Positions 7,491-53,676 of a stretch of 64,000 bases of DNA are shown one piece after another. The stretch covers positions 288,001 through 352,000 of the forward strand of contig OZ223269.1 in NCBI GenBank assembly GCA_965140585.1, given 5' to 3'. Below the pieces are notes generated by a model. That model worked only from the letters and a program-made list of their open reading frames with translations. It was not told where the DNA came from and made no database searches. Origin of the DNA: Spirochaetia bacterium (lineage in GTDB: Bacteria > Spirochaetota > Spirochaetia > UBA9216). Position numbers and translations under genes: made by a program. Within the stretch, counting starts at the first letter, position 1, and each line of letters starts with the position of its first letter.

Positions 7491-9710
7491 TCATTCAGTC
7501 TTTTTATAAACTTTACAAATCTGAGATTTAAACGGGTATCCCAGCCCTGAACGGCCTGTCCAGCCTTTAGGAAGCAGCAGGTTTATATTAGCTTCCCAGA
7601 CACCGAAGAGTTCCGGCTCAGAAGCTGTTTTTTCTGGAAACCACCAACCGTGTTGTGCATGTACAACTTTCGGATGGATCCCTTCAGTCAGTTTTGCTTT
7701 CTGTATACATTTTCCATGAGCATTTTCAATATATACAGAATCGCCATTTGTGATTCCAAGATTTACCGCAGTATCTGGATGTATTTCCAGAAGCGGGTCT
7801 GGGTTCATTTTTCTGAGGCTTTTTATCTGTCTCTGTTCAGAGTGGAAAAATGCTTTTGTTTTACCGCCGGTGGTAAGAATTAGGGGATACTGTGTAAAAA
7901 GATCCGGAGTGCTTACAGGACTTTCCGGAGGCTCCTCATAATATGGAACAGGAGACAGTCCCCACTGCCTGAAAAGACTGGATGAAAGTTCCACCTTTCC
8001 TGAGGGGGTGTTAAATCCGGGTCTACCGTCAGGCCTTAATAGACCTTTTTCATATCTTCTGTATGAAAAACTATCATAAGCCCATCCCTTATCTCTCAGC
8101 TCTGCAAAAGTGAAGCCGGTTCTTTCGAGCATGTAATCAAACATCTCAATAGTATTCTCCCACGGCCAGTCTGATGGATTTAATTTCTTTCCAAGTTCGA
8201 GGATTATCTGCGCGTCCGGCCGGCACTCTCCCGGAGGTTCGATAGCTTTATTTATTGTTGCAAGATAGTTGGCCCCGTCAGTAACAGCAATTCCATCTTT
8301 TTCAGGATAAGCCGCCGCAGGTAAGACAATGTCGGCAAAAGCCATTGCCGTGGGCGTCATAAAAACATCGACAACAATGGTAAAATCGAGGTTTTTAAAC
8401 GCCTCATAGGTTCTTTTAGAGTCTCCGGATCCGCAGACGAAGGTGTTTGTTCCCTGTATCCATGCTGCTTTTATAGGGTAGGGCTCAGCACTGAGCATCT
8501 GCTCAAGAACTTCATCACCCTTGTAAAGATTTATTGCCTGAAGAAATGGATGTCCGTCAATTCCAAAGGCCTTGGCCCTCTGTGAAGGCGGCAGCTCAAC
8601 ATCATTCCAGCGGAACATTGCATCAAACTCAAAATTTCTGCCTGTAAAAACATTTCCGCCCGGAGTATCTAGGTTCCCTGTTATAGCCTTAAGAGCCAGA
8701 ATTGCATGAATAGCAGGAATACATTCTTTTGACTGATCAACAGCAACTCCCCATAAAATTAGTCCGGGAGAAGCCCGGGCATAATCACGGGCTGCTTCAA
8801 TTATTATCTGAGCTGGAATCCAGGTTATTTCCGAGGTTTTATTGGGTGTATATTCCGTAACTGCAATTTTAAGTTCATCAAAACCGAGGGTCCAGTTTTC
8901 AACAAAATCGGCATCATAGAGTTTTTCTTTGATGATAATATGAAGAAATCCCATAGCCAGTGCACCGTCGGTTCCGGGGCGCAGCTGCAGCCAGCTGTCC
9001 GCTTTTGATGCTGTGACAGTTTTTCTTGGATCAATAACTATCATCCTGCTTCCCATCTGCAGACATCTGCTTATCCAGCCGCCAAGGAATCCGTCCGAAT
9101 TGGACTGGGCCGGGGATTTCCCCCAGATAATGATAGTTTCTGGCTGTTTCCACTCAGGATTATCCCAACGATCCTCAAAATATTGGGAACAGTCTGCTAC
9201 CGGAAATCCTCCGCAGGTGAACATAGAGGCGGCTATTCGGGGCACAAAGCAGGCATGGCCCAGCAGGGGGCCGAAGGAGAGTGAATGGGGGCTTCCAAAG
9301 GCTGTAGCCATTCTGTTCATGTAGGAAGCGATGTCTCTTTGCGTTCCTGTGCAGAAAATGACCGATTCCGCTCCGAAATCGGTTTTATATGAATTTAATT
9401 TATCTGCAATTTTAGTGTAGGCTTCTTCCCAGCTTATCTGTTCCCAGCGATCCTCTCCTTTTTTACCTGCTCTTTTAAGAGGGTGGAGAAGTCTGTCCGG
9501 ATGGTAAATCACCTCGGGTAATACGGAACATCTGGGACATATCTTTCCTTCGCTGAAAGGGAATTCAGGATTGCCTCTGACTTTTTCAAGTTTGCCGTCT
9601 TTTGTATAAAGCAATACGCCGCAGCCCTGATGGCAGCCGGGTGCTGTTCTTGCCGTACTTCGTACTATTCTGTAGCCGTTTTCGTGTTTAATCCAGCTGT
9701 TATCATTCAA
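7491..9710 (-). CDS. Cytoplasmic Mo/W-bisPGD oxidoreductase (DMSO reductase superfamily; acetylene hydratase/catechol dehydroxylase-like branch)
   Basis: GCHQGC...CPRC Fe-S motif, DRLLHPLKR, WEQISWEEA, GHACFVPR putative metal-ligand Cys, LRPGTD, FMTPTAMAFADIVLP, TPSGKVEL, C-terminal molydop-binding domain; no Tat signal. Confidence 0.9.
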   Translation of the reverse strand: MNDNSWIKHENGYRIVRSTARTAPGCHQGCGVLLYTKDGKLEKVRGNPEFPFSEGKICPRCSVLPEVIYHPDRLLHPLKRAGKKGEDRWEQISWEEAYTKIADKLNSYKTDFGAESVIFCTGTQRDIASYMNRMATAFGSPHSLSFGPLLGHACFVPRIAASMFTCGGFPVADCSQYFEDRWDNPEWKQPETIIIWGKSPAQSNSDGFLGGWISRCLQMGSRMIVIDPRKTVTASKADSWLQLRPGTDGALAMGFLHIIIKEKLYDADFVENWTLGFDELKIAVTEYTPNKTSEITWIPAQIIIEAARDYARASPGLILWGVAVDQSKECIPAIHAILALKAITGNLDTPGGNVFTGRNFEFDAMFRWNDVELPPSQRAKAFGIDGHPFLQAINLYKGDEVLEQMLSAEPYPIKAAWIQGTNTFVCGSGDSKRTYEAFKNLDFTIVVDVFMTPTAMAFADIVLPAAAYPEKDGIAVTDGANYLATINKAIEPPGECRPDAQIILELGKKLNPSDWPWENTIEMFDYMLERTGFTFAELRDKGWAYDSFSYRRYEKGLLRPDGRPGFNTPSGKVELSSSLFRQWGLSPVPYYEEPPESPVSTPDLFTQYPLILTTGGKTKAFFHSEQRQIKSLRKMNPDPLLEIHPDTAVNLGITNGDSVYIENAHGKCIQKAKLTEGIHPKVVHAQHGWWFPEKTASEPELFGVWEANINLLLPKGWTGRSGLGYPFKSQICKVYKKTE

Positions 9711-41905: not shown

Positions 41906-42358
41906 TTAATCCTCTTTAATATAAAAGTAAATCTCTGTTATCAGATCTTCAGGCTTTGTATCTTCGGGTGAATTCATGTACTGCTCGTACATAGCTGTTT
42001 CAAAAACTATACCCTTAGTTTTCGCATATTCGCTGATTTTATCGTATGTTTCACTAAGATTTGCGTATGTACCCTTATGTGTTTCAATCAGCATCTTTCC
42101 TCCGGGTAGATATCCTGAATTTACATTACCTCCGTTTTTAAAGCTTCCTGAAACTGGAAAACCGGCCTCAATCTCCAGATTATCCATATCCATGTTGAAA
42201 TACATTGCGTAAGGTGCGCCTGTGAACTGAATATTCTGATTTTCAGCATATTCAGCTATCTCTCCATAAGCTTTTGCCAGAAACGCAGGTATTTCCTGCA
42301 TTGTTGTGATTCCTTTTACAGCCATAGTCGGCTGTTCTTCCTTCTGAATTATCTTCAT
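41906..42358 (-). CDS. GyrI-like small-molecule-binding protein
   Basis: GAPYA.Y, IEAGFPV, H.G.Y..L..TY, YEQY.N.P......L.TEI. Confidence 0.88.
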   Translation of the reverse strand: MKIIQKEEQPTMAVKGITTMQEIPAFLAKAYGEIAEYAENQNIQFTGAPYAMYFNMDMDNLEIEAGFPVSGSFKNGGNVNSGYLPGGKMLIETHKGTYANLSETYDKISEYAKTKGIVFETAMYEQYMNSPEDTKPEDLITEIYFYIKED

Positions 42359-42403
42359 AATGGAACTCCTTTGTTTTAGCGATAATTCATTATTTCACCA
42401 TGT

Positions 42404-42425
42404 ATACGACAGCAGTATGTCGTAA
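42404..42425. promoter_or_regulatory. Putative WYL/YafY regulator binding site upstream of gyrI-like gene
   Basis: TACGACA-N6-TGTCGTA perfect dyad (42405-42424). Confidence 0.65.
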
Positions 42426-42484
42426 TTATTTTAAATATATTTTAACAAATCATTTCAGTATGCTGTGATAGAATCATAATTAAG

Positions 42485-43366
42485 ATGAGTAAAATAAAAT
42501 TTAATAATGATTTATGCAGAATATGCGGTTTGTGTGAAAAAGTATGTCCTAACAAAATTATTATAAGGACAGATTCAGGAATGACTACTAGAAATGACCA
42601 TGTTTTCTCCTGTTTCCAGTGCGGACAATGTATGGCTGTCTGTCCTGCCTGCGCTGTCGAGGTGGAAGGTTTAAATTATAATAGTGATTTTTTTGAACTC
42701 CCCAATGCTGCAGAAAGTAAAGAGCTGTTTAGTAATCTGATAAAAACAAGAAGATCAGTGCGTAATTTTCAAAAAAAGGCTGTACAGGAAGAGCATCTAA
42801 CAAAAATAGTTGAAGCAATAAGTCTTGCTCCACCGGGATTTCCTCCCCTAAGGTATGAGCTGACAGTAATCAATGATGCTGATCTGATGACTGAATGTAT
42901 ACCGCTAATGATAGAATTCTATGAAAAACTTGTAAAGCAGATGAAAAATCCGGTTATCAGATTTTTTATTAAAAACAGTGTCGGAAATCAGGCATTTTTA
43001 ACCATGAAGCAGCATCTTATTCCACTGCTTAAAATACGGCTTCCTGATTTAAAAAACGGAAATGAAAATACCTTAACAAGAGATGCTCCTGCAATGATAC
43101 TTTTTCATCAAAATAGAAATGAAGAGGACCTGACAGAAGATATTTTGATTGCTGCGACATTCGGAGTATTATCTGCACATTCATGGGGCCTTGGAGGCTC
43201 AATTATGAGTATAATACCACCTGCAGTTGATAGAAGTCCGGAACTTAGGAAATTATTTAAAATACCTGAACAGAATAAAGTTGTGTCATCACTTATCATG
43301 GGATATCCCAATATAAAATACCAGCGCGGGATAAAACGCGAAATAAAAAAAATAATAAGGCTGTAA
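42485..43366 (+). CDS. Nitroreductase with N-terminal 2x[4Fe-4S] domain
   Basis: CRICGLCEKVCP, CFQCGQCMAVCP, TRRSVRNF, AHSWGLG. Confidence 0.9.
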   Translation: MSKIKFNNDLCRICGLCEKVCPNKIIIRTDSGMTTRNDHVFSCFQCGQCMAVCPACAVEVEGLNYNSDFFELPNAAESKELFSNLIKTRRSVRNFQKKAVQEEHLTKIVEAISLAPPGFPPLRYELTVINDADLMTECIPLMIEFYEKLVKQMKNPVIRFFIKNSVGNQAFLTMKQHLIPLLKIRLPDLKNGNENTLTRDAPAMILFHQNRNEEDLTEDILIAATFGVLSAHSWGLGGSIMSIIPPAVDRSPELRKLFKIPEQNKVVSSLIMGYPNIKYQRGIKREIKKIIRL

Positions 43367-43376
43367 GTTTAAATCC

Positions 43377-44222
43377 ATGATAGATTCACCTGTGATATAT
43401 TATTTTTCAGGTACCGGAAATTCTCTCCATGTAGCAGAGCTGCTTAAGGCTAAACTTCCAAATTCAGATATAATCCCGGTAATCAAAGCATATTATGAAA
43501 GAAAATTTATATGCACATCAAATAAAGTTATCTTCGTTTTTCCATGTCACGGCCTGACTATTCCTATCCCGGTAAAGAAATTTATACAAAACCTTGAAAT
43601 TGATAAAGGATCATATATATCTTCAATAGTGACGAGGGGAGGCACAGTTTTTAAAGGTAATATCCTGCTTAAAAAATTATTAAACCGGAAAAGACTTAAA
43701 CTTAATTCCTCATTTCTAATCGATATGATATCCAATGATCCAAAATTCAAAAATTATTCACTTCCAGATATAGCCGATTTTAAAAACATTATGAAAAAGT
43801 CTGAGTCCAGTGTTTGGAATGCTGCTGAAATTATTGAATCTGGTAAGGATTATTCTGCCCCTGATACGGGTGTTTCATTCAGCCGGAACCGAATCCTTAA
43901 CACAATTCTTGAATTGTTAATCCCTTTTTTGACTCATAATATATCGCCAAAAGTCAGTAAATATTTTTATTATGATAAAAAGTGTACGGGTTGCGGAGTA
44001 TGTGAAAAGGTTTGCCCGTCATCAAAAATTATGATAATTAAAAATGAACCCGTATGGCAGAAAAAGATTACCTGCTATCTCTGTTATTCCTGTCTTAATT
44101 ACTGTCCCCAAAGCGCAGTACAGATTTATTCGAAAAAATGGATGAGATCATATACTGGTGAAAATCCCAGATATCATCATCCAGAATGCAATTTCGCAAA
44201 GATTGCAAAGCAGAAAGTATAG
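43377..44222 (+). CDS. EFR1-family flavodoxin-ferredoxin fusion
   Basis: YYFSGTGNS flavodoxin loop; CTGCGVCEKVCP and CYLCYSCLNYCP; RYHHP. Confidence 0.88.
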   Translation: MIDSPVIYYFSGTGNSLHVAELLKAKLPNSDIIPVIKAYYERKFICTSNKVIFVFPCHGLTIPIPVKKFIQNLEIDKGSYISSIVTRGGTVFKGNILLKKLLNRKRLKLNSSFLIDMISNDPKFKNYSLPDIADFKNIMKKSESSVWNAAEIIESGKDYSAPDTGVSFSRNRILNTILELLIPFLTHNISPKVSKYFYYDKKCTGCGVCEKVCPSSKIMIIKNEPVWQKKITCYLCYSCLNYCPQSAVQIYSKKWMRSYTGENPRYHHPECNFAKIAKQKV

Positions 44223-44256
44223 CCTGTGGAGTATTATAGCTTCAGAGGGTAATAAA

Positions 44257-45030
44257 ATGTCAAAGGCCATATCAGATGAAATTAAGATAATAGATCTTAC
44301 ACCGGATAACATAGCAGACTATGGTGTCTGCGGATATAAGGATGTGAAAAAGCATCTTGAACTGAGGCGAAAAATTGACTGGGTGAAAAAATACTACCCT
44401 AAAGGACTCCGGATAAAAGCACTGATACATCAAGAGGGTGGATACCAGGGGATGATAGAATATATTCCCGGAGAATATGCACACAGACCGGTGAATGCTG
44501 AAGGCTACATGTTTATACACTGTCTCTTTGTAGGGTTTAAAAAAGAATACAAAGGCAGAGGTTATGCCTCTCTGCTTACTGAAGAATGTATTAAAGAAAG
44601 CCGTAATACCGGATATAAAGGCGTAGCTGCTGTGACCCGCATCGGTTCTTTTATGGCTGACAGCGGCGTTTTTATAAAAAACAATTTCAAAGCAGTAGCT
44701 TCCGTGAAGCCTGATTTTGAACTGCTTGTGAACAAATTTGATAATTCATATCCAAATCCTGACTTCCGGAAAATCCACCCAGAGAAGTTTGATAAGGGAT
44801 TTTATATTTTCAGATCAGCCCAGTGCCCCTACACAGTGAAGAATGTTGATGCCATCATAAAAGCAGCTGAAGATAAAAGGCTTAATCCGCAGCTGATAGA
44901 AATCAATTCACATGAAGAGGCTCAGAACTCTCCAAGCCCCTTCGGTGCATTCGGTATTATTCATAATGGAAAAATTCTTAGTTATCATCCTATAAGTGTT
45001 AAAAGGTTTGAAAACATAATTAATAAATAA
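44257..45030 (+). CDS. GNAT acetyltransferase with C-terminal YoaP-like domain
   Basis: IEYIPGEYA.RPV, IHC, KGRGYAS, QCPY, AQNSPSPF; ATG 44257 after GAGGG. Confidence 0.82.
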   Translation: MSKAISDEIKIIDLTPDNIADYGVCGYKDVKKHLELRRKIDWVKKYYPKGLRIKALIHQEGGYQGMIEYIPGEYAHRPVNAEGYMFIHCLFVGFKKEYKGRGYASLLTEECIKESRNTGYKGVAAVTRIGSFMADSGVFIKNNFKAVASVKPDFELLVNKFDNSYPNPDFRKIHPEKFDKGFYIFRSAQCPYTVKNVDAIIKAAEDKRLNPQLIEINSHEEAQNSPSPFGAFGIIHNGKILSYHPISVKRFENIINK

Positions 45031-45071: not shown

Positions 45072-46715
45072 ATGACTAATCCAAGTGCATATTTCTTAAA
45101 ATGTTATTCAGAAAGTCCGCTCGAAGTTCAGAAAAAAGCTTCGATTCTTGTAGTGATCAATTTTCTATTTATCATTCTTTCACTATTGCTGACACTGGCA
45201 ATGGCTTTAACCGGAGCGGTTGTGGCTATGGTTATGACCTCAGTTCTGGCTGTCTGCTGCTTATTTTTTCTTGTTCTGATTAAAAAAGGGAAATTTAAAA
45301 TAGCTGTAAATTTATTTCTTGCAGTATTCTTTTTAATAATTTTTGCAACAATCAAGTTTGATGCCTATGTAGATGTATATGAAACCTATGTGATTTCAGC
45401 ACTTGGGCTGTTTTTTCTCATTATCACCTGTCTTGTAGGATATTCTATATACCAGCCTGTTGCTGCAACGATATTAAATTGTGCAGCAATATCTGCAATT
45501 TATCTGGTTGATGTTCTTCCTTCACAGAAGGGACAAGTCGGTATTCTTGATGTTCAGAATCTGGTTACCTGTTATATAATAGTTATCGGCTCAGGCTTTA
45601 CAGCTGTTATGATACTCAGACTGCTTAAAACTCTTGTGAAGGATGCGGAAGATTCAAAGTCGGAAGTTCAGAAACATTTTGCAGAGTTTAATACAGGAGT
45701 TAAGGAAACATTTGAAATCTTCACCGGAATAGGTGAGGAGCTCAGGAGTTCCTCGGATACTTCGATTAATACGATTAGCAGAGTTTCATCAGATTTAAAC
45801 CGTATTAAAACCTCTGTAGAAGAATTGGAAACAAGCATATTTGAGATGTCAGGAGCAAATAAAAAATCTGTTGAATCGGTAGATTTTCTCAATTCAACCC
45901 TCGATAAATACAATCTTACCGTACAGACTACATCTTCTTCTGTAGAGCAGCTAATCGCCAATATTAATTCAATTTCATCAAATACAGCCTCACAGATGAA
46001 GGCAGTGGAGGCTTTGGTTTCCTCCTCGATGTCCGGTGAAGCAGAAATGGATGATTCTGTTGGACTGATTAACAGTATAGACAAGAGTTCATCTGATATG
46101 CTTGAAATGGTTCAGATTATTATGAGTATTGCTGATCGTACAAACTTACTGGCAATGAATGCGGCAATTGAAGCAGCCCATGCGGGAGAATCAGGTAAAG
46201 GTTTTGCAGTTGTCGCCGACGAAATAAGAAAACTGGCGGAAGAAACAGCTAAAAATTCCAGGAATATTTCTGAACGTTTATCAGAAAGTCTCTCTGCAGT
46301 CAGCAGGACTACTGAAGCCAGTCAGAGAGTAGGGCAGACATTTCACTTAATTACAGAAGAAATACGAAAGGTTTCATCGATGTTCAGGGAGGCTTCTGCA
46401 GGTATAGATGAGATGTCTCAGGGAACCGGTGCTATTCTGTCCGAAATTGAAGGAATAGTTGATAAATCGGCACTTGCCGATGAAGCTATGAAGAACCTTG
46501 AAAATATAAATGCACAAAACACAGAGAAGCTCGATGAGATAGTCAGCCGGGCAGAAAATGTAGCAGAAACCATATCTGATATAAAAAGAATTTTCACTGA
46601 TGCAGAAGCCCAGGCTGTGAGAGTCTCTGAAATAGGACAGGAAAATGTCAGTCAGCTTAACCGTTTCAGTAAAAAAATGAATTCACTCAATTCAGAAAAA
46701 AGGGCTCCGGCTTAA
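45072..46715 (+). CDS. Methyl-accepting chemotaxis protein with multi-TM sensor
   Basis: About six N-terminal TM helices; [38 protein letters not shown] signalling hairpin. Confidence 0.93.
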
Positions 46716-46735
46716 GCTGAGGCTCCAGCCGGAGC
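46696..46735 (-). terminator. Terminator for the GRE operon (possibly bidirectional)
   Basis: GCTCCGGCT (46704-46712) / AGCCGGAGC (46727-46735) stem; the A run at 46696-46701 gives a U tail on the minus strand. Confidence 0.6.
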
Positions 46736-46763: not shown

Positions 46764-48047
46764 CTAATAGATACCTATAGCAACCAAAATTAAATAAAGT
46801 GCAAGGTTAATAAACGGCCAGCCAAGAAGGAAGTTGAAAATAGTTTTCCTGTGACCGTCATCATCAACACTTGCGACTACAAGACCGCCTGAACCGGAGA
46901 ACGGTGATACTGCAGTAGCCATTGCTCCTACTGCTACAGCTGCATAGCCGATACCGGGCACAAATCCGCCGGCTATTGCCAGTGCCGGAACCAGGGCAAA
47001 GAAAGTAGTGTTAACTACGAACCCGCTTACAAAAAGACTCATCACTCCTGCAATAAGTGCAAGCACTATTGGTACAATTGCAACCGGAACGCTTTCTCCA
47101 AGCCATGTTGATACCATCTCGATAGCTCCGGTTTTGCTGACTATTCCGATAAGTGTTCCCATACCGCAGAGAGTTGTAAGGGCGGAAAGAGGAACACGCT
47201 TAAAAGCTGCTTTTTCATCACCGACTTTAAGTACAGAAAGAACTACTGTACCGATGAAAGCGATCCAGACCAGGTATACACCACTGGCTATTTTCGTAGC
47301 AGCAGGGCTGTTCGGGAAAATTAGTCCAAGAAGCGGTGCTGCAACAAGAACTACTACAAAGCCGATGATAACAGCAAGATTTGCCTTCTGTTTCGACTCG
47401 AAGGGTTCAGGTTTTTCAAGAACCGGTGCTTCAATTTTATATCCCTTGAAAATTATATAAGCGGCAATAAATATTATTGTGAAAAGAAGTGTAATCTGAA
47501 AAAACGCATGGTTTCCGTAACTGTTCACTTCTTCAACTGAATGCCCACCTGCAGTCATGGCCATCTCCCTGAGGAAGATACCTGCAGTACTTATCGGTGA
47601 AAAACCTCCTGCACTGATACCAGATACACAGGATACAGCAGCAAGAATATTATTCATTCCTGTAACTTTGGCTATGGACAGACCGATAGGAATCATCATA
47701 ACAGTAGCGCCGTCTCCGGCTCCTATCGCAGCCATAATAAATGATAGAATGAACAGTACAATGGGAATTGCCCATGGCATGTTCCGGACAGCATAAACGA
47801 CCTTATCCGCAACTTTTCCAAGTGTTCCGTTAAGTACGGCAAAGCTGTAGAAAAGTGTAACAGAAAAAAGCAGCAGAAATAGTCTTGTTGGAAATACTCC
47901 CACTAAACCTCGTGGTGATTCGCCAAGGACAAAGACTCCGATAATATAGGCTGCAGCTATAGCCCACAGACCTATATTAGTTTTAGTTTTAGCTCCTAAT
48001 GCAATTACAGCAACAATTGCAATTAGACTGATGATGATAATCGACAT
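46764..48047 (-). CDS. MatC/SLC13-like (IT superfamily) carboxylate carrier
   Basis: NIGLWAI...FP..LF..LFSVTL.Y..A..NGTL MatC-N pattern; SPIS..G and SPFS.SG hairpins; about 11 TM; start after AGGGGG. Confidence 0.8.
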   Translation of the reverse strand: MSIIIISLIAIVAVIALGAKTKTNIGLWAIAAAYIIGVFVLGESPRGLVGVFPTRLFLLLFSVTLFYSFAVLNGTLGKVADKVVYAVRNMPWAIPIVLFILSFIMAAIGAGDGATVMMIPIGLSIAKVTGMNNILAAVSCVSGISAGGFSPISTAGIFLREMAMTAGGHSVEEVNSYGNHAFFQITLLFTIIFIAAYIIFKGYKIEAPVLEKPEPFESKQKANLAVIIGFVVVLVAAPLLGLIFPNSPAATKIASGVYLVWIAFIGTVVLSVLKVGDEKAAFKRVPLSALTTLCGMGTLIGIVSKTGAIEMVSTWLGESVPVAIVPIVLALIAGVMSLFVSGFVVNTTFFALVPALAIAGGFVPGIGYAAVAVGAMATAVSPFSGSGGLVVASVDDDGHRKTIFNFLLGWPFINLALYLILVAIGIY

Positions 48048-48106
48048 CACGCCCCCTTGAAAGTAAATATTTAAATGCCGGGTTCTCATCCGGCATTATA
48101 CCCTAG

Positions 48107-50494
48107 TTAAACCTGAGAGAATTCGGTTCGTTCTATAATTTCATCCTGCATTGGTTCGCCAAGTGCTGTAAAATAAGCACTGTATCCGGCAACTCTTACT
48201 ACAAGATCCTTATGCTTTTCAGGTTCGATCTTTGCAGCTATAAGATGATCTTTATCAACTATATTGAACTGCATATGTTTTCCGCCCTGGGCAAAATAAG
48301 TTTTAATCAGGTTCCCGAGTTTTACAAGATCAGCTTCTGTTTTAAGAGCTGATGGATGAAACTTCATATTTAGAAGAGTTGCCTGGTAGGTGTCCTGATT
48401 GATTTTCATTGCGCTCTTAAGAACGCCCGTAGGTCCTTTTCTGTCCATTCCATGCATCGGGGACATTGAGCCGTCGGCAAGAATCTCACCGCTCTTTCTT
48501 CCATCCGGAGTTGCTCCTGTAAGAAGCCCGCCGGGCTGGTGCGAGGTGATTGAAATAGCAGTTGTTACAGCACGTCCGCCGTAGTACGTAGGCATGGAAG
48601 CCAGCTTCTTCTCAATATGGTCATACAGCTCCGCGGCCAGTACGTCAACTTCGTCAATGTCATTACCGTATTTAGGTGCGTCAAGGAAGTGCTGTCGCAT
48701 TTCTTCGTAACCTTCCCAGTCAGCATCCAGCGCAGTGAGAAGTTCCTGCATCGTGTATTTCTTTTTATCAAACACAAGATGTTTAACTGCTGCCAGCGAA
48801 TCTGCCACGTTTATTGCGCCAATAGTACAGAGAACAAGTCCGTTTTCAAGCGGCATGGTTCTTCTAAGAATGTCTTTGCCTTCCTTGATTGCATCCTTCA
48901 TTAGTGATGATCTGAATGGATCAGGGAAGAGATCCTGTTCTGCTTTAAGTTCTATATTGCTTTTTTCTACCCCGAGTTCAAGAAGATAATCAAGCTGCTT
49001 GTAGAATGCATCCTTGTACAGATTGAAATCAGACATACCTGTTACATCTCCGGTTTCAATACCGACCATTTCTTCTGTTCCCTTGTTATATCCGTTGTGC
49101 ATGAAGATATCGTAGGCAAGTGCAATTATGAACATACCTACTGCAACTGTTCTTGCTTTAGCCGGTATATTTCCATCAAGACATCCTGTCATAATGTAAT
49201 TACGTGAGTCTTCCATGGACATTCCCTGATAGCGGAAGAAGTTGATGTAGGATTTATCTCCTACGAAGGCAGGCATTCCCATACCGGTTTTTACTACTTC
49301 AAGTGCCTTAACCATGAGGTCATCAGGTGTTTTGTCATGAATACGAAGTGTCAGAGTATGATGCGGAACTCTGGTTTCTTTTGCAGCATCAAGAAGGAGG
49401 TAGGTGAGCGGGTTGCTGGCATCATTTCCATCCTTATCCACGCCGCCGATAGTCCAGTTATGCCATTTTGCCATACCCGCATTTTTCTTTCTGTTCTGTT
49501 TTCCTGAAACCCTGTTAAGCTTCATATCCTTTATTCTAAGGTTCTCAAGCAGTTCGAGAATTTCGTCATTGTTTGTTACCCCGTTTTCTATATCCTTTTT
49601 GTAGAAAGGATACATAAACTGGTCGAAACGGGCACCCGCTGTTGTAGGTGAGGGTGATGCAAGCAGGAATGTGAACCAGAAAGACTGAATTGCTTCAAAG
49701 AAGCTTTCAGCAGGCTTGGCTGGAACTTTTCGGCAGGCTTCTGCAATTCTGAAAAGCTCTGCTTTTCTCTGCTTGTCATTTTCTTCAGCACCCATTTTTT
49801 CAGCGAGATCAGCATATCTTTCAGCAAGTTTTATTACTGCATGGTGAACTATAATAATAGATTTTAGAAAATCTACAGCTTCCTTGTCAGAATTACCCTT
49901 CGCTTCATGTTCTTTAAGTGCTGCTTCACAGTCAGCGATGATCTTTAGAGACCCGTCATTAAGCATTCTTTCAAAATCCATTCCGACAAGGAAGAAGCCA
50001 GGACCAAGGCCGAGGCCTGACTGTGCATATCCGCCGCCGCTTCCTTCTTTTCCCTTCCACGGAGGGAGGATCATTCCTGATTTCATAAAAGGCCAGAGTT
50101 TTTCATTCTTCATGAAAACAGCGCCCATTGCAGAAACGAGGTTGTAATCACCGAAGTTGGCATTTATTTCCTGAAGTTCTTTTTCATCTTCGGGGGTAAT
50201 GCTGTAGTTTTCGGATTTAAGCGAATCAACCTCATCCGGAGTCCATGTTCCGTATTCATAATCAATTTCAAGCCCGAATGGCTTGCTTGCACCTGCTCCG
50301 GCAAATAGATCGCCTTCTTCGATGAAAATTGTTATGTTTTCGAGGATGTTCTTCATAATCTGCGCACGACGCAGAACATTCGGCTGCCCCTCGGTTTCTG
50401 AAAGTGTCTTGGTTGCGATACGGAATTTTTCAATGCATAGCGGGTATTTATCGACATGCAGCTCATTCAGCATCTTTTCAATTCTTGGTGTCAT
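48107..50494 (-). CDS. Glycyl radical enzyme of unassigned function
   Basis: Gly loop LVVRVAGYSAYF, Cys loop MTGCLDG, PA.SFFEAIQSFWF, RFDQ, PKYGND, GATPDGR, GG.HMQFN; ATG 50494 after GGAGG. Confidence 0.95.
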   Translation of the reverse strand: MTPRIEKMLNELHVDKYPLCIEKFRIATKTLSETEGQPNVLRRAQIMKNILENITIFIEEGDLFAGAGASKPFGLEIDYEYGTWTPDEVDSLKSENYSITPEDEKELQEINANFGDYNLVSAMGAVFMKNEKLWPFMKSGMILPPWKGKEGSGGGYAQSGLGLGPGFFLVGMDFERMLNDGSLKIIADCEAALKEHEAKGNSDKEAVDFLKSIIIVHHAVIKLAERYADLAEKMGAEENDKQRKAELFRIAEACRKVPAKPAESFFEAIQSFWFTFLLASPSPTTAGARFDQFMYPFYKKDIENGVTNNDEILELLENLRIKDMKLNRVSGKQNRKKNAGMAKWHNWTIGGVDKDGNDASNPLTYLLLDAAKETRVPHHTLTLRIHDKTPDDLMVKALEVVKTGMGMPAFVGDKSYINFFRYQGMSMEDSRNYIMTGCLDGNIPAKARTVAVGMFIIALAYDIFMHNGYNKGTEEMVGIETGDVTGMSDFNLYKDAFYKQLDYLLELGVEKSNIELKAEQDLFPDPFRSSLMKDAIKEGKDILRRTMPLENGLVLCTIGAINVADSLAAVKHLVFDKKKYTMQELLTALDADWEGYEEMRQHFLDAPKYGNDIDEVDVLAAELYDHIEKKLASMPTYYGGRAVTTAISITSHQPGGLLTGATPDGRKSGEILADGSMSPMHGMDRKGPTGVLKSAMKINQDTYQATLLNMKFHPSALKTEADLVKLGNLIKTYFAQGGKHMQFNIVDKDHLIAAKIEPEKHKDLVVRVAGYSAYFTALGEPMQDEIIERTEFSQV

Positions 50495-50495
50495 T

Positions 50496-51419
50496 TTAGC
50501 CTCCAATCTGACTGATCAGGTTATACTGATCGAAAATAAATTTTACAGAATTCATATGTGCATCATCAGGCGGATCAGCCTCAAAGGAAGGAGCTTCTTT
50601 TTCAAGCTGTTCCCATTTTCCGATTCCCATTCGATGATAGGGAAGAAGACTGACCGGTGTGTCTTCACCCAGTTTCTCTTTGATGAATCGGGCTGTCTGA
50701 TTAAGATTTTCTGATGAATCGTTATATCCTGGTATAAGAGGGATACGAATATTGACAGGAATATTCAGTTCTTTCTTAATTTTAACTATGTTCTCAAGAA
50801 TCCTTTTATTTCCTACACCAGTACCGAATTTGTGTCCTTCGGAATCCATGTGCTTGAGATCATAAAGTACGAGATCGGCATCTTTTATAGTATCTTTTAC
50901 TACATCCCAGTCAGCATTTCCTGTAGTTTCTACTGCTGTTGATATGCCTGATTCTTTAAGCATAGCAAGCAGTGTCCGGGAGAATTCCGGCTGAAAAAGA
51001 ATTTCACCGCCGCTGAGAGTTACTCCTCCTCCTGAACCTTCGTAGAAAATCTTGTCAGATTCGACATCAGCAATAACCATGGCCGCTGTCATTTCCTTAC
51101 CGATTATACTTCTTGCTTCAGTAGGACAGACTGGTACGCAGGCTCCGCATGCAGTACACAGTGTGCGGTTTGTATGTATTTTATTATCTTCAAGAAAAAT
51201 AGCCTTTTCCGGACATACGCTGATGCAGGCCCCGCATGTGATGCATTTATCAGCATTAAAAGATAATACCGGTTTAATAGTATGAGATTCCGGGTTCTGG
51301 CACCATTTGCACCTTAATGAACAGCCGCTAAGAAATACAGTTGTTCTTATTCCGGGCCCATCATGAATAGAATAGTGCTGAATATCGAAAACCCAGCCCT
51401 TTATGTGTTGATCAGCCAA
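50496..51419 (-). CDS. Glycyl-radical activating enzyme with two auxiliary [4Fe-4S] clusters
   Basis: HDGPGIRTTVFLSGCSLRCKWCQNPES; CITCGACISVCP, CTACGACVPVCP; GGGVTLSGGE; LLPYH; TTG 51419 after GAGGG (alternative ATG 51434). Confidence 0.95.
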   Translation of the reverse strand: MADQHIKGWVFDIQHYSIHDGPGIRTTVFLSGCSLRCKWCQNPESHTIKPVLSFNADKCITCGACISVCPEKAIFLEDNKIHTNRTLCTACGACVPVCPTEARSIIGKEMTAAMVIADVESDKIFYEGSGGGVTLSGGEILFQPEFSRTLLAMLKESGISTAVETTGNADWDVVKDTIKDADLVLYDLKHMDSEGHKFGTGVGNKRILENIVKIKKELNIPVNIRIPLIPGYNDSSENLNQTARFIKEKLGEDTPVSLLPYHRMGIGKWEQLEKEAPSFEADPPDDAHMNSVKFIFDQYNLISQIGG

Positions 51420-51451
51420 TAGGTAAACCCTCATTTATTTTGGTATAAGTG

Positions 51452-51482
51452 ATGGTAAACCTTACCACTGTGGGAAGGTCAA
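51452..51482 (-). promoter_or_regulatory. MerR-type promoter/operator of the GRE operon
   Basis: Minus strand TTGACC-N19-TACCAT with dyad ACCTTCCCAC-A-GTGGTAAGGT (51459-51479). Confidence 0.88.
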
Positions 51483-52342
51483 ATTTTTTTATTAATTTTT
51501 TTTACAGGAACATAAAGCTCGGCAAGGTGGTCATGCTTTCCGGATATGGTACCGGGTGCTACGCATTTTCTGATTACATCTCCGACTATTTCGTAATCTT
51601 CCTTTTTCAGAAAATCTTTAAGCTTATCATAATATTCATCAGAGTTATTAAGACTGCCCCAGAACCTCATTGTTGCATATTCAGAGTTCTCAGGAACTTT
51701 CTGGACATATTTATTACGGGATTTATAAATACCATATTTAAGGCTGATTCCAATAAACTGATTATATTTACCGTTAATAAAATCGTCCTTACTGAACACA
51801 GTTGAAACCTGTGAAATTAAAAGCGTTGGATTGCCTTCAAGTACCGATTCAAGTTTTCGTACCGCTATCTCAAAATCTTTACGATTATCAAAGGGATATT
51901 CAAGATATATCAGCTTTAGATCCCTTGCCTGTGAAATATGAAGAACTTCGACTTCTTTATTATGTAGTGCTTCTTCAATCGATTCTATATGGCTCGTGAA
52001 GGTCCTTTTAATATTTGATAGCTCCCTTACTTTGTTTTCTGTCTCATTTATCTGCTCAATCATCAGCTCTTCAAGACTCTCTATGTTGGTTTCATTCAAT
52101 TTGGTTTTTATCATGTCATACGAAACATCGAGTTTTCTAAGGTATTTGATGAAATTGATTAAATAAAACTGAGAGGAAGAGTAGTATCTGTAGCCATTAA
52201 TCTGATCAATTTTATAAGGTTTTAACAGATTAATACTATCCCAGTATCTCAGCATTTTTGATGGAATGCCGAATATATTTGAGACTTCACCGATCGAATA
52301 ATTGTTATTGATCCACTGGTTTTTCACAGGTGCTTCTACCAT
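51479..52342 (-). CDS. MerR-family regulator, BmrR/BltR-type with C-terminal effector domain
   Basis: YSIGEVS..FGI..KMLRYWD..NLLKP...NGYRYY HTH; coiled coil; GyrI-like C-terminus. Confidence 0.9.
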   Translation of the reverse strand: MVEAPVKNQWINNNYSIGEVSNIFGIPSKMLRYWDSINLLKPYKIDQINGYRYYSSSQFYLINFIKYLRKLDVSYDMIKTKLNETNIESLEELMIEQINETENKVRELSNIKRTFTSHIESIEEALHNKEVEVLHISQARDLKLIYLEYPFDNRKDFEIAVRKLESVLEGNPTLLISQVSTVFSKDDFINGKYNQFIGISLKYGIYKSRNKYVQKVPENSEYATMRFWGSLNNSDEYYDKLKDFLKKEDYEIVGDVIRKCVAPGTISGKHDHLAELYVPVKKINKKI

Positions 52343-52545: not shown

Positions 52546-53676
52546 ATGATAAATGAAATACAGGCGAAAAGCATATTAAGGAAGTATAAGAAGATAGATT
52601 CCTGGTTTATAAGCGCATATGCTATAAACCTGTACAGAGGATGCACTCATAATTGTGTTTATTGTGACGGCCGAGATGACAAATATCAGGTTGAAGGAGT
52701 TTTTGGACGTGATGTGAGTGTAAAAAGCAATGCAATTGAACTTCTGAGAAAGGAGCTTGATCCTGCCAGGAAGAGAAAACCCTTTAAAAACGGATATTTT
52801 ATCATCTGCGGCGGAGTAAGCGATTCATACCAGCCCTTCGAAAATGAGCTGCAGCTGTGCAGGCAGACTCTGGAACTATTTCGTGAATTTAATCATCCGG
52901 TTCACATCCTGACTAAATCAACTTTGGTTGAACGGGATATGGAACTGCTGCTTGATATTAACCGGAACATAGGTGCAACAGTCAGCTTCAGTTTTTCAAC
53001 CGTTGATGATGAGCTGGGGAAGCTGCTGGAACCGGGAGTGCCTCTGCCTTCAAAGCGTCTTGCTCTTATTAAAAGGATAAAAGAAGCCGGCCTTAACTGC
53101 GGAATGTTTCTTATGCCGGTTGTCCCTGGCATTACAGATTCGGCTGAGCAGATTGATGCGTCGGTAGAGGCGGCCTCAAAGGCCGGAGCTGATTACGCTG
53201 TATTCAGCGGTATGACTCTTAAACCGGGCAGGCAGAAAGATTATTTTATGAATTTCCTGGATAATTACCGCCCTGAATTAAAAAGCGGATATAATAAGGT
53301 TTACGGCAGCGAAAACAGCTGGGGTTCACCGTCTTTGACCTACGCCGCGGCTGTTGCACGGCGCTTTGATGCTGCCGCCTCAAGGCATGCATTAGCAAAA
53401 CGAATACCTTCAGAGATTTTTGAGTCTCTGGTTTCAAGGGATGAACTGATTATTCTGATTCTCGAACAGCTTGACTGGCTGATGAAACTTAAGAATCGTG
53501 AAAGTCCATATGGTTATGCAGCCTATTCCCTCACTAAAAATGAAAAGCCGGTTACTGAAATGACTTATAAAGAGTTAACCGCAATGCGCGGTATAGGAAG
53601 CTTTACAGCCCGCCTTATTCTCGAAATTATAGAGACCGGAAGCTCAGCATATTACCGTAAAATGCTGAGAGGGTAA
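52546..53676 (+). CDS. SPL-like radical SAM protein with C-terminal helix-hairpin-helix domain
   Basis: NLYRGCTHNCVYC, SDSYQP.E, ILTKS.LV.RD, LEPG, MPVVPGITD; C-terminal RGIG..TA HhH. Confidence 0.85.
   Translation: MINEIQAKSILRKYKKIDSWFISAYAINLYRGCTHNCVYCDGRDDKYQVEGVFGRDVSVKSNAIELLRKELDPARKRKPFKNGYFIICGGVSDSYQPFENELQLCRQTLELFREFNHPVHILTKSTLVERDMELLLDINRNIGATVSFSFSTVDDELGKLLEPGVPLPSKRLALIKRIKEAGLNCGMFLMPVVPGITDSAEQIDASVEAASKAGADYAVFSGMTLKPGRQKDYFMNFLDNYRPELKSGYNKVYGSENSWGSPSLTYAAAVARRFDAAASRHALAKRIPSEIFESLVSRDELIILILEQLDWLMKLKNRESPYGYAAYSLTKNEKPVTEMTYKELTAMRGIGSFTARLILEIIETGSSAYYRKMLRG

Follow-up and report, generated by a model that had tools for sequence, protein, structure and literature searches.

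A glycyl radical enzyme with a Cys-x-Asp loop encoded with its activase, a MerR-type regulator and a presumed organic-anion carrier in a Spirochaetia genome

Introduction

Glycyl radical enzymes (GREs) carry out key anaerobic reactions of gut and sediment, such as the formation of trimethylamine (TMA), H2S, p-cresol and skatole. Whole GRE clades remain untested according to a 2026 review (PMC13450708). A four-gene cassette in a stretch of 64,000 nucleotides from a Spirochaetia bacterium (assembly GCA_965140585.1, contig OZ223269.1, positions 288,001 to 352,000; hereafter the window, from whose first letter all positions are counted) encodes a GRE with Asp two residues after its catalytic Cys, and raises the question of what such an enzyme does and on which substrate. 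Very probably MerR induces the locus, an organic anion is taken up, and an uncharacterised GRE of a Cys-x-Asp (CXD) clade converts it by radical chemistry. This large clade alters the one residue that defines eliminase and isomerase catalysis, and the window is a compact test case with its own sensor, a defined operator, the only intact activase of the genome and a dedicated carrier. Its reaction, once identified, would add a pathway of anaerobic organic-acid turnover and possibly a new type of radical reaction.

Organisation of the cassette

The elements of the cassette are as follows.

51479-52342, minus strand: merR, 287 aa, Pfam MerR_1 and MerR
51452-51482, minus strand: MerR-type promoter upstream of the activase gene, -35 TTGACC at 51482-51477 and -10 TACCAT at 51457-51452
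50496-51434, minus strand: glycyl-radical activase, 312 aa, Pfam Radical_SAM and two Fer4
48107-50506, minus strand: GRE, 799-aa open reading frame (ORF) from TTG, Pfam PFL-like and Gly_radical
46764-48089, minus strand: MatC_N/CitMHS carrier by Pfam, 441 aa
46690-46735, minus strand: intrinsic terminator, hairpin at about 46704-46735 followed by a T-run

The four ORFs lie head to tail in the order merR, activase, GRE and carrier and end in the terminator, and this single-strand arrangement, read from the letters alone in the original prediction, is borne out by ORFs, Pfam and RNAfold. Between merR and the activase gene lie 44 nt, only 1 nt separates the activase stop from the likely GRE ATG (codon 5, base 50494), and 17-59 nt separate the GRE from the carrier, by choice of carrier start. 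This ATG is the probable GRE start and gives 795 aa, because alignments with homologues begin at query residue 5 and 795 aa is also the length of the relative with 97% identity. For the carrier, whose homologues have 426-428 aa, the ATG at 48047 is likewise the probable start and gives a protein of 427 aa. Operon gaps this narrow leave no space for a small-subunit gene, and no same-strand ORF for a small accessory subunit was found inside the operon (intergenic gaps 1-59 nt). By Pfam, no genes for a bacterial microcompartment (BMC) shell, aldehyde dehydrogenase or alcohol dehydrogenase were found between 38215 and 62837, so that all the absences first claimed for this operon hold.

The terminator hairpin at about 46704-46735 has a free energy of -23.5 kcal/mol in RNAfold, is followed by CCTTTTTTCTG, and shares 12 nt with the end of a convergent chemoreceptor gene. 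A consensus promoter and terminator scan gave counts not above those of shuffles and did not pick up this terminator, probably owing to the 3-8 nt loop limit of the scan, because the single-stem loop has about 14 nt and RNAfold closes it only via an inner stem. The functional promoter and the terminator were located by sequence reading and locus comparison.

Relation of the enzyme to characterised GREs

The window GRE has the barrel and the glycyl radical domain of the superfamily (PFL-like PF02901, E 8.6e-155; Gly_radical PF01228, E 3.2e-31; Pfam), the RVxG[FWY] motif, a catalytic Cys and an adjacent cognate activase. Its Cys loop MTGCLDG begins at residue 439, with Cys442 encoded at 49181-49183 and Asp444 at 49175-49177, its Gly loop RVAGYS begins at residue 771, with Gly774 at 48185-48187, and a basic stretch, RVSGKQNRKKNAGMAKWH, spans residues 332-349. 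The two loops, the basic stretch and the Cys and Gly codon coordinates had been read correctly in the original prediction, exact on re-check. RVAGYS and MTGCLDG are invariant over 59 aligned sequences.

No membership of a characterised GRE family was obtained by NCBIfam, sequence search of the PDB or fold search. On TIGR01774, the model of the PFL2/glycerol dehydratase subfamily, the enzyme scores 534.6 bits, below the cut-off of 678.2. Its NCBIfam scores against their cut-offs are 511/1000 for HpsG, 469/1050 for CutC, 451/1100 for HypD, 438/1100 for indoleacetate decarboxylase (IAD), 420/1109 for PRK09983, 419/1000 for HpfG, 346/1150 for 4-hydroxyphenylacetate decarboxylase (HPAD) and 126/994 for pyruvate formate-lyase (PFL). 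The best solved relatives by sequence (phmmer) are CutC (9f3w, E 1.3e-131), glycerol dehydratase (GD, E 1.3e-126) and propanediol dehydratase (PD, E 1.1e-122). An AlphaFold2 model from a 59-sequence alignment reached a mean predicted local distance difference test score (pLDDT) of 84 and a predicted template modelling score (pTM) of 0.88. Its best Foldseek matches were PDs and GDs, HypD and CutC (TM 0.87-0.90, 28-32% identity), with the arylacetate decarboxylase 7e7l at rank 49. With scores below the equivalog and TIGR01774 cut-offs and such low identity to the closest structures, the proposal of an uncharacterised single-subunit GRE stands; in the original interpretation as a whole, this part, the fixed Asp, the carrier linkage and part of what was read into the basic stretch are upheld.

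Three candidate identities were set aside. PFL does not fit, the loop having a single Cys (GCLD) and no adjacent Cys pair; the multisubunit type of X-succinate synthase or HPAD does not fit, no small-subunit gene lying beside the GRE; and the loop Cys442-Leu-Asp444 departs from the motif of the Cys-x-Glu (CXE) eliminases and isomerases.

With the B12-independent GD of C. butyricum (1R8W) and the PDs 5I2G and 9RCO the enzyme shares the ten-stranded barrel (TM 0.87-0.90, Foldseek E about 1e-50 to 1e-52), alignment over the full length (phmmer E 1.3e-126), a single catalytic subunit, a Gly loop, a Cys loop whose Cys+2 residue is acidic, and an activase carrying two additional Fe-S clusters. It differs in its 29-32% identity, in the loop Cys-x-Asp-Gly instead of Cys-x-Glu-Pro, in the replacements of His164 by Leu173, Ser282 by Thr288 and Tyr339 by Trp348, in lacking a counterpart of Asp447, in a 6-residue GGG-loop insertion and clade-specific Arg/Lys residues, and in a carboxylate-carrier rather than a diol/aldehyde context. 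CutC and the C-S lyases IslA, IseG and HpsG include its best sequence matches (9f3w E 1.3e-131; HpsG 511 and CutC 469 bits). HpsG, IslA and IseG take small anionic substrates anchored by two Arg (PMC13450708, in part) and are often encoded with TRAP carriers, and choline loci also hold a MerR-type regulator (weak match to NF053782, 49.7 bits vs a cut-off of 450). The window enzyme however misses the cut-offs of this group by about half, carries CXD instead of CXE and Tyr160 in place of CutC Asp216, and its locus has no microcompartment genes and no sulfite or TMA theme. The arylacetate decarboxylases (HPAD, IAD, PAD and AAD) also act on carboxylates, IAD and AAD as single subunits, and the level of similarity is comparable (IAD 438 bits; 7e7l E 4.2e-116); they differ in keeping CXE, in taking aromatic acetates and, for HPAD, in needing a small subunit that is absent here, and the window operon lacks genes of aromatic-amino-acid fermentation.

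The Cys-x-Asp clade and its distribution

The Asp at Cys+2 was followed through database homologues, 68 genome loci, 52 metagenome loci (numbered with an L) and the paralogues of this genome. Of the 8,000 database candidates scored, more than 1,400 proteins gave a match at E <= 0.001, and among the matches listed GC[LV]D is found in 120/120 homologues (57-97% identity), as is RVAGYS. A FastTree tree was built from 86 full-length GREs, drawn from the genome loci and from this genome; in it the 76 sequences with GC[LVIM]D form one clade and the 10 with CXE or other loops stand apart. Asp occupies Cys+2 in 76/76 clade members and is never Glu. The residue singled out in the original prediction is, on both counts, a fixed clade character, and judging by these alignments the Cys-x-Asp loop of the window GRE is not due to chance. 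TIGR01774 scores separate along the same line: the CXD enzymes reach 514-535 bits, with the other two intact CXD GREs of this genome at 514 and 517, below the 678 cut-off, and the two CXE paralogues at 981 and 777 bits, above it.

In the sections of the 2026 review that were consulted, the six C-O eliminases, CutC, the C-S lyases and the three isomerases all keep CXE with the Glu hydrogen-bonded to the substrate, this Glu being the base that deprotonates the substrate hydroxyl in eliminases and isomerases, and HPAD has Cys503/Glu505; these sections make no mention of a CXD loop (PMC13450708). Of the earlier statements on a GCLE loop in HPAD and on benzylsuccinate synthases, it is the HPAD residues and the CXE of eliminases and isomerases that this source confirms, and nothing further. 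A full-text literature search, with subscription journals outside its scope, returned no publication that describes a Cys-x-Asp GRE or a GRE with an aliphatic carboxylate as substrate. The GRE of bioRxiv 10.1101/536078 is a fumarate-adding-like gene irrelevant to the CXD clade.

An ordinary enzyme of the diol dehydratase or sulfonate lyase type, in which the exchange of Glu for Asp would be functionally silent, is hard to credit. By fold the window GRE comes closest to 1,2-propanediol and glycerol dehydratases, and the best NCBIfam equivalog is the 2,3-dihydroxypropane-1-sulfonate enzyme HpsG, also for an anionic C3 diol, but the scores reach only about half of the equivalog cut-offs (HpsG 511/1000, CutC 469/1050, HypD 451/1100). 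Identity stays at 28-32%, GD His164 and Ser282 are not kept, the Asp is fixed in 76/76, and BMC, aldehyde dehydrogenase and sulfite-handling genes are missing.

The clade occurs in Clostridia, Spirochaetia, Planctomycetota, Acidobacteriota and Desulfobacterota. Relatives of at least 44% identity were found in 5/301 sampled genomes of the same class, the remaining matches having at most 39% (CXD status was here assigned by identity), and the nearest relatives outside the genus are from Planctomycetota, Desulfobacterota and Clostridia metagenome-assembled genomes (MAGs). Such relatives in distant phyla suggest horizontal spread of CXD GREs. A decaying or inactive remnant of horizontal transfer could likewise be patchily distributed, and the same genome does hold one broken CXD GRE and one broken activase; the window, on the other hand, has four intact genes with catalytic motifs kept and a conserved promoter and terminator, and a 97%-identical copy in the same order exists in a sister genome, which makes such a remnant very improbable.

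Among distant matches only, three loci (L071-L073; Desulfobacteraceae and Deltaproteobacteria MAG contigs) encode 832-aa GREs in which the Cys loop reads ACMSP and an Arg comes 15 residues after the Cys. Behind the GRE genes comes a conserved series of small ORFs (123-137 aa) and of 580-635-aa proteins, and the three loci resemble systems of the X-succinate-synthase type.

Linkage of the carrier

The carrier matches MatC_N with 102.4 bits (cut-off 23, E 3.1e-29) and CitMHS with 70.5 bits (cut-off 31.9) in Pfam, which places it in the ion-transporter superfamily, presumably as an organic-anion carrier, and it is single copy in this genome. In the window subclade a MatC carrier lies directly downstream of the GRE in 8/11 members (the window, L009, L011, L012, L013, L014, L017 and L045). 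The exceptions are L015, with TRAP DctPQM in the carrier position, L008, with a second GRE, and L010, with nothing relevant. In the sister subclade the carrier follows the GRE in 6/7, the seventh contig being too short, and the metagenome loci L102 and L103 (74% and 69% identity relatives) read activase-GRE-carrier. Conserved linkage to the carrier, which the original prediction had set as its own test, is accordingly kept. More widely, CXD GREs are encoded at 54 of the loci; 29 of these place a MatC/CitMHS, TRAP or MFS carrier at most three genes away, and several others have ABC systems.

The anionic nature of the substrate would follow from the MatC/CitMHS, TRAP, MFS and TctBAC transport genes beside CXD GREs. 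The substrate-binding protein of the L015 TRAP system matches 4n6d best (116 bits), for which no ligand was returned, and the TctC protein of the paralogue locus in this genome shows remote likeness only to terephthalate and Bug binders. Candidate substrates considered are malonate or substituted malonates, tartrate or glycerate, sulfolactate, aconitate, itaconate or tricarballylate, opine-like imino acids, and quinate or shikimate, the last two suggested by esterase, enoate-reductase and CarCDE-like neighbours in other subclades. Zwitterions of the carnitine/betaine type were judged unlikely as substrates, since the carriers appear to be of the anion type.

MerR regulator and promoter

The MerR protein has its helix-turn-helix by Pfam (MerR_1 E 5.4e-14, MerR E 3.7e-10), and among solved structures it is closest to BmrR entries (E about 6e-12), the match being confined to the N-terminal 110 residues. 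No GyrI-like or other effector domain was matched by Pfam in its C-terminal half; orthologues in L017 and in L077 of this genome show GyrI-like C-terminal matches (E 2.5e-4 and 7.5e-5) below the gathering score. It resembles BmrR-type activators in the N-terminal helix-turn-helix, in length (287 vs 278 aa) and in the 19-bp spacer with a central dyad, and differs in the C-terminal effector domain, not recognisable here and weakly GyrI-like in orthologues only.

MerR-type activation works by promoter distortion, with a 19-bp spacer carrying a central dyad as its hallmark. The promoter upstream of the activase gene has such an over-long spacer and dyad operator. Its -35 hexamer overlaps the merR stop codon, and the 19-bp spacer carries the inverted repeat ACCTTCCCAC-a-GTGGTAAGGT (51479-51459, 21 bp), the arms of which match at 9/10 positions. 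The same layout of -35, 19 bp and -10 was found 5' of the activase in five related loci (L009, L017, L008, L015 and L037), with a perfect dyad in L017, and twice in L077 of this genome (GRE-TctBAC-MerR), before the GRE and before tctB. A loose promoter pattern gave three matches on both strands of the 64-kb window, the other two without a dyad by eye; the dyad search covered promoter stretches only. From this promoter architecture and the BmrR-like N-terminal half, the cassette is most likely switched on by a small ligand, which is presumably the substrate.

The two promoters of L077 (C7 of this genome), at positions 8627 and 11214, carry an operator dyad nearly identical to that of the window. 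Because of this near identity, the two MerR paralogues may cross-regulate each other's operons.

Activase

The activase scores 356.2 bits on TIGR02494 (cut-off 174; NCBIfam), with Radical_SAM and two Fer4 domains by Pfam, and contains CX3CX2C and two ferredoxin-like Cys clusters. It is the sole intact GRE activase detected in this genome, because the only other activase gene is split, and it appears that it would serve up to five GREs (three CXD and two CXE).

The split gene, at G000:C1:752986-753720, is in three pieces with a TAA stop inside one, and adjoins a Cys-x-Glu GRE at C1:750357-752738.

Conserved residues

Residues were mapped by a phmmer alignment to GD and a MAFFT alignment, the latter noisy against distant GREs. 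Invariant or close to it over the 76 clade members are W150, G159, T288 (72), R293, D295, Q296, N350, C442, D444, I651, S652, I653, H656 (69) and P658. T288 aligns with GD Ser282, the CutC Asp216 position aligns with Tyr160, and GD Asp447 falls in a one-residue gap near A455/V456. Basic residues conserved in the clade are R339 (76/76), K341 (73 K, 2 R), K/R347 (57/19) and R452 (75/76). The first three flank W348 (76/76), which aligns with GD Tyr339, so that what had been noted as a basic stretch upstream of the Cys loop now comes down to three clade-fixed basic residues that adjoin a known active-site position and may line the active-site pocket. R452 opens the strand that comes after the Cys loop, and the X-succinate-synthase-like sequences in the alignment have an Arg within one column of it, which we take to be the fumarate-binding Arg of benzylsuccinate synthase.

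Paralogues and recurrent neighbours

The other two intact CXD GREs of this genome are both in TctBAC operons, one ordered TctB-TctA-TctC-PrpD-like-PGA_cap-like-GRE with a divergent PucR-type regulator, and one GRE-TctB-TctA-TctC-MerR. In other subclades, recurrent neighbours of CXD GREs are PucR-type regulators (13 loci), URO-D-like proteins (8 loci), HGD-type 2-hydroxyacyl-CoA dehydratase subunits with an activase-type ATPase, family I and III CoA-transferases, AMP-forming ligases and GlcDEF-like flavoproteins. Further neighbours are acyl-CoA dehydrogenase (ACAD) with electron-transfer flavoprotein (ETF), closest to the acryloyl-CoA reductase AcrABC (518 bits vs a cut-off of 640), tannase, feruloyl and carboxyl esterases, and an enoate-reductase-like flavoenzyme. 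Other CXD subclades have CarCDE-like neighbours and adjoin TTT, TRAP or MFS carriers, two or three CXD paralogues are often in tandem around one carrier, and aldehyde-handling genes are nearly absent around CXD GREs. These neighbours point to organic-acid catabolism via 2-oxo/2-hydroxy acids and CoA esters.

Two enzyme partners are the commonest in the clade. For the PrpD-like partner the best solved match is iminodisuccinate (IDS) epimerase (135 bits), then cis-aconitate decarboxylase, with 2-methylcitrate dehydratase at 36. The PGA_cap-like partner has as its only solved matches 8gq9, 8gqb and 8ith, deposited as poly-gamma-glutamate synthesis protein and presumably MslH; its sole NCBIfam match is the model of the lasso-peptide C-terminal Trp epimerase MslH (97 bits vs a cut-off of 700).

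These partners bear on an alternative in which the GRE is a C-N lyase or isomerase of an amino- or imino-polycarboxylate (opine- or iminodisuccinate-like) or of a chiral alpha-substituted acid, Asp444 binding or deprotonating the heteroatom and the partner epimerases supplying the correct stereoisomer. Both partners have as their nearest matches epimerases whose site of action adjoins a carboxylate, L103, whose GRE is 69% identical to that of the window, has activase-GRE-carrier-PrpD-PGA_cap in one row, and epimerases are employed too in GRE isomerase and hydroxyproline pathways (in part from PMC13450708). The window operon however has neither partner, the partner matches are remote and far below family cut-offs, and no aminotransferase or deaminase theme recurs, so this alternative is considered improbable.

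The pair of PrpD-like and PGA_cap-like genes accompanies CXD GREs across many phyla (L076 11245-13799 on C9 of this genome, L103, L123, L135, L046 and L037). A fourth CXD GRE of this genome, at G000:C9:321440-323750 (L004, L007 and L078), has an IAGCMDLM loop, lies beside an AraC-type regulator and is interrupted by TGA and TAG stops, which leave three ORFs (176, 109 and 454 aa).

Proposed reaction and competing readings

The account that we favour in full, an inducible carboxylate-uptake cassette with an Asp444-based 1,2-elimination to a 2-oxo acid, is put forward tentatively, its failure being judged slightly the likelier outcome. The BmrR-like MerR activator would sense a small molecule and turn on the 19-bp-spacer promoter of activase, GRE and carrier, and uptake by the carrier would bring in an organic anion, for which a hydroxy- or poly-carboxylate is the likeliest choice. 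The activase would install the Gly774 radical, which would generate the Cys442 thiyl radical for attack on the bound carboxylate, with R452, K/R347, R339 and K341 holding the anionic groups of the substrate. A hydrogen atom would be abstracted at the carbinol carbon next to the carboxylate, Asp444 would act as acid/base in place of the Glu of known enzymes and deprotonate the substrate, and 1,2-elimination of the neighbouring leaving group would yield a 2-oxo acid. This product would pass straight into central metabolism, which would account for the lack of a downstream enzyme in the operon.

Elimination is favoured because the nearest sequences and structures are C-O/C-N eliminases (PD 5i2g, GD 1r8w, PD 9rco, HypD and CutC), and because an acidic residue is kept at Cys+2 and Thr288 aligns with GD Ser282. 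A ketone or 2-oxo-acid product would fit the near absence of aldehyde-handling genes, and 2-oxo/2-hydroxy-acid processing is suggested by the HGD, CoA-transferase, acryloyl-CoA-reductase-like ACAD/ETF and GlcDEF-like neighbours. Provided that the enzyme is a CXD GRE acting on an imported anion, 1,2-elimination would be the foremost single candidate, itself doubtful; Kolbe-type decarboxylation and the remaining types taken together (isomerase, C-N or C-C lyase) would each be unlikely, to the same degree.

Several points weigh against the favoured account. IAD scores 438 bits here against 469 for CutC and outranks CutC for both own-genome paralogues (NCBIfam), and the URO-D-like genes of the eight loci and the minimal layout of an enzyme plus a carrier would fit decarboxylation equally well. 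The position equivalent to GD His164, the acid by which the leaving OH is protonated, is Leu173 (68 L and 8 F in the clade; the equivalence is uncertain owing to the 6-residue insertion), and a GD-type dehydratase mechanism would therefore not be conserved. The clade-specific segments 157-167 and about 335-350 have the lowest confidence of the model (pLDDT about 57 for the basic stretch), so that the roles given to the basic residues are conjectural. The single clade comes from a topology read without branch-support values. The carrier has no NCBIfam match and its homologues are named generically ('di/tricarboxylate transporter', 'SLC13 family permease'), so that its family offers no close relative of characterised function. 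Gene content and integrity, clade membership, carrier linkage, promoter architecture and residue conservation are observed here; inducer, substrate class, residue roles and reaction type are all ones that we infer.

Foremost among the competing readings is a Kolbe-type radical decarboxylase of a non-aromatic di- or tricarboxylate, which we regard as unlikely. The substrate carboxylate would lie beside Cys442, where the shorter Asp frees space, and be oxidised by the thiyl radical. Loss of CO2 would give a stabilised carbon radical (alpha-carboxy, allylic, alpha-hydroxy or alpha-amino), to which the hydrogen would return, and energy might be conserved by a carrier that swaps precursor for product. 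The activase-GRE-carrier operon does resemble known decarboxylase/antiporter modules, but oxidation of an aliphatic carboxylate by a thiyl radical is energetically harder. Known GRE decarboxylases put the substrate carboxylate nearest the Cys, and in IAD, where this is so, a water occupies the site filled by the CXE Glu in other GREs (PMC13598205 and PMC13450708, both in part), a site that the shorter Asp would free. All four known GRE decarboxylases however use arylacetates and keep CXE (PMC13450708, in part). NCBIfam scores for IAD are near or above eliminase scores, although sequence and fold neighbours put eliminases first, with 7e7l at Foldseek rank 49. Among the neighbours, the decarboxylase-fold URO-D-like genes in 8 CXD loci, the PrpD-like partner with IDS epimerase and cis-aconitate decarboxylase as nearest solved relatives, and the CoA ligases and CoA-transferases that follow in several loci would suit decarboxylation, and tandem GREs on one carrier could strip carboxylates stepwise. 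The antiport mode of the carrier is however not supported by any result.

A broader reading takes the CXD enzymes as a new functional class of GRE with chemistry unprecedented in the family, the candidates being radical decarboxylation and the cleavage of C-C or C-N bonds in non-aromatic hydroxy-, amino- or poly-carboxylates; the substrate's carboxylate would take up the Cys-loop site which in all known GREs holds the longer Glu. The window operon would be the minimal inducible form of this class (sensor, activase, enzyme and carrier), possibly with energy-conserving exchange of substrate and product. This is possible, if rather doubtful, and the Asp444-based elimination is kept as the preferred account.

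Flanking genes

The genes around the cassette are unrelated to it by Pfam. Downstream lies the convergent methyl-accepting chemotaxis protein (chemoreceptor) gene at 45072-46715, upstream a divergent gene at 52546-53676 for a radical-SAM protein with a C-terminal helix-hairpin-helix, and further out are a WYL regulator and a sensor kinase. The divergent gene and the merR promoter may have the 203-nt intergenic region in common. At 41906-45030 the window holds a small redox cluster, comprising a GyrI-like gene and, on the opposite strand, a nitroreductase-ferredoxin fusion, a 4Fe-4S dicluster protein and a protein with a YoaP-like C-terminus.

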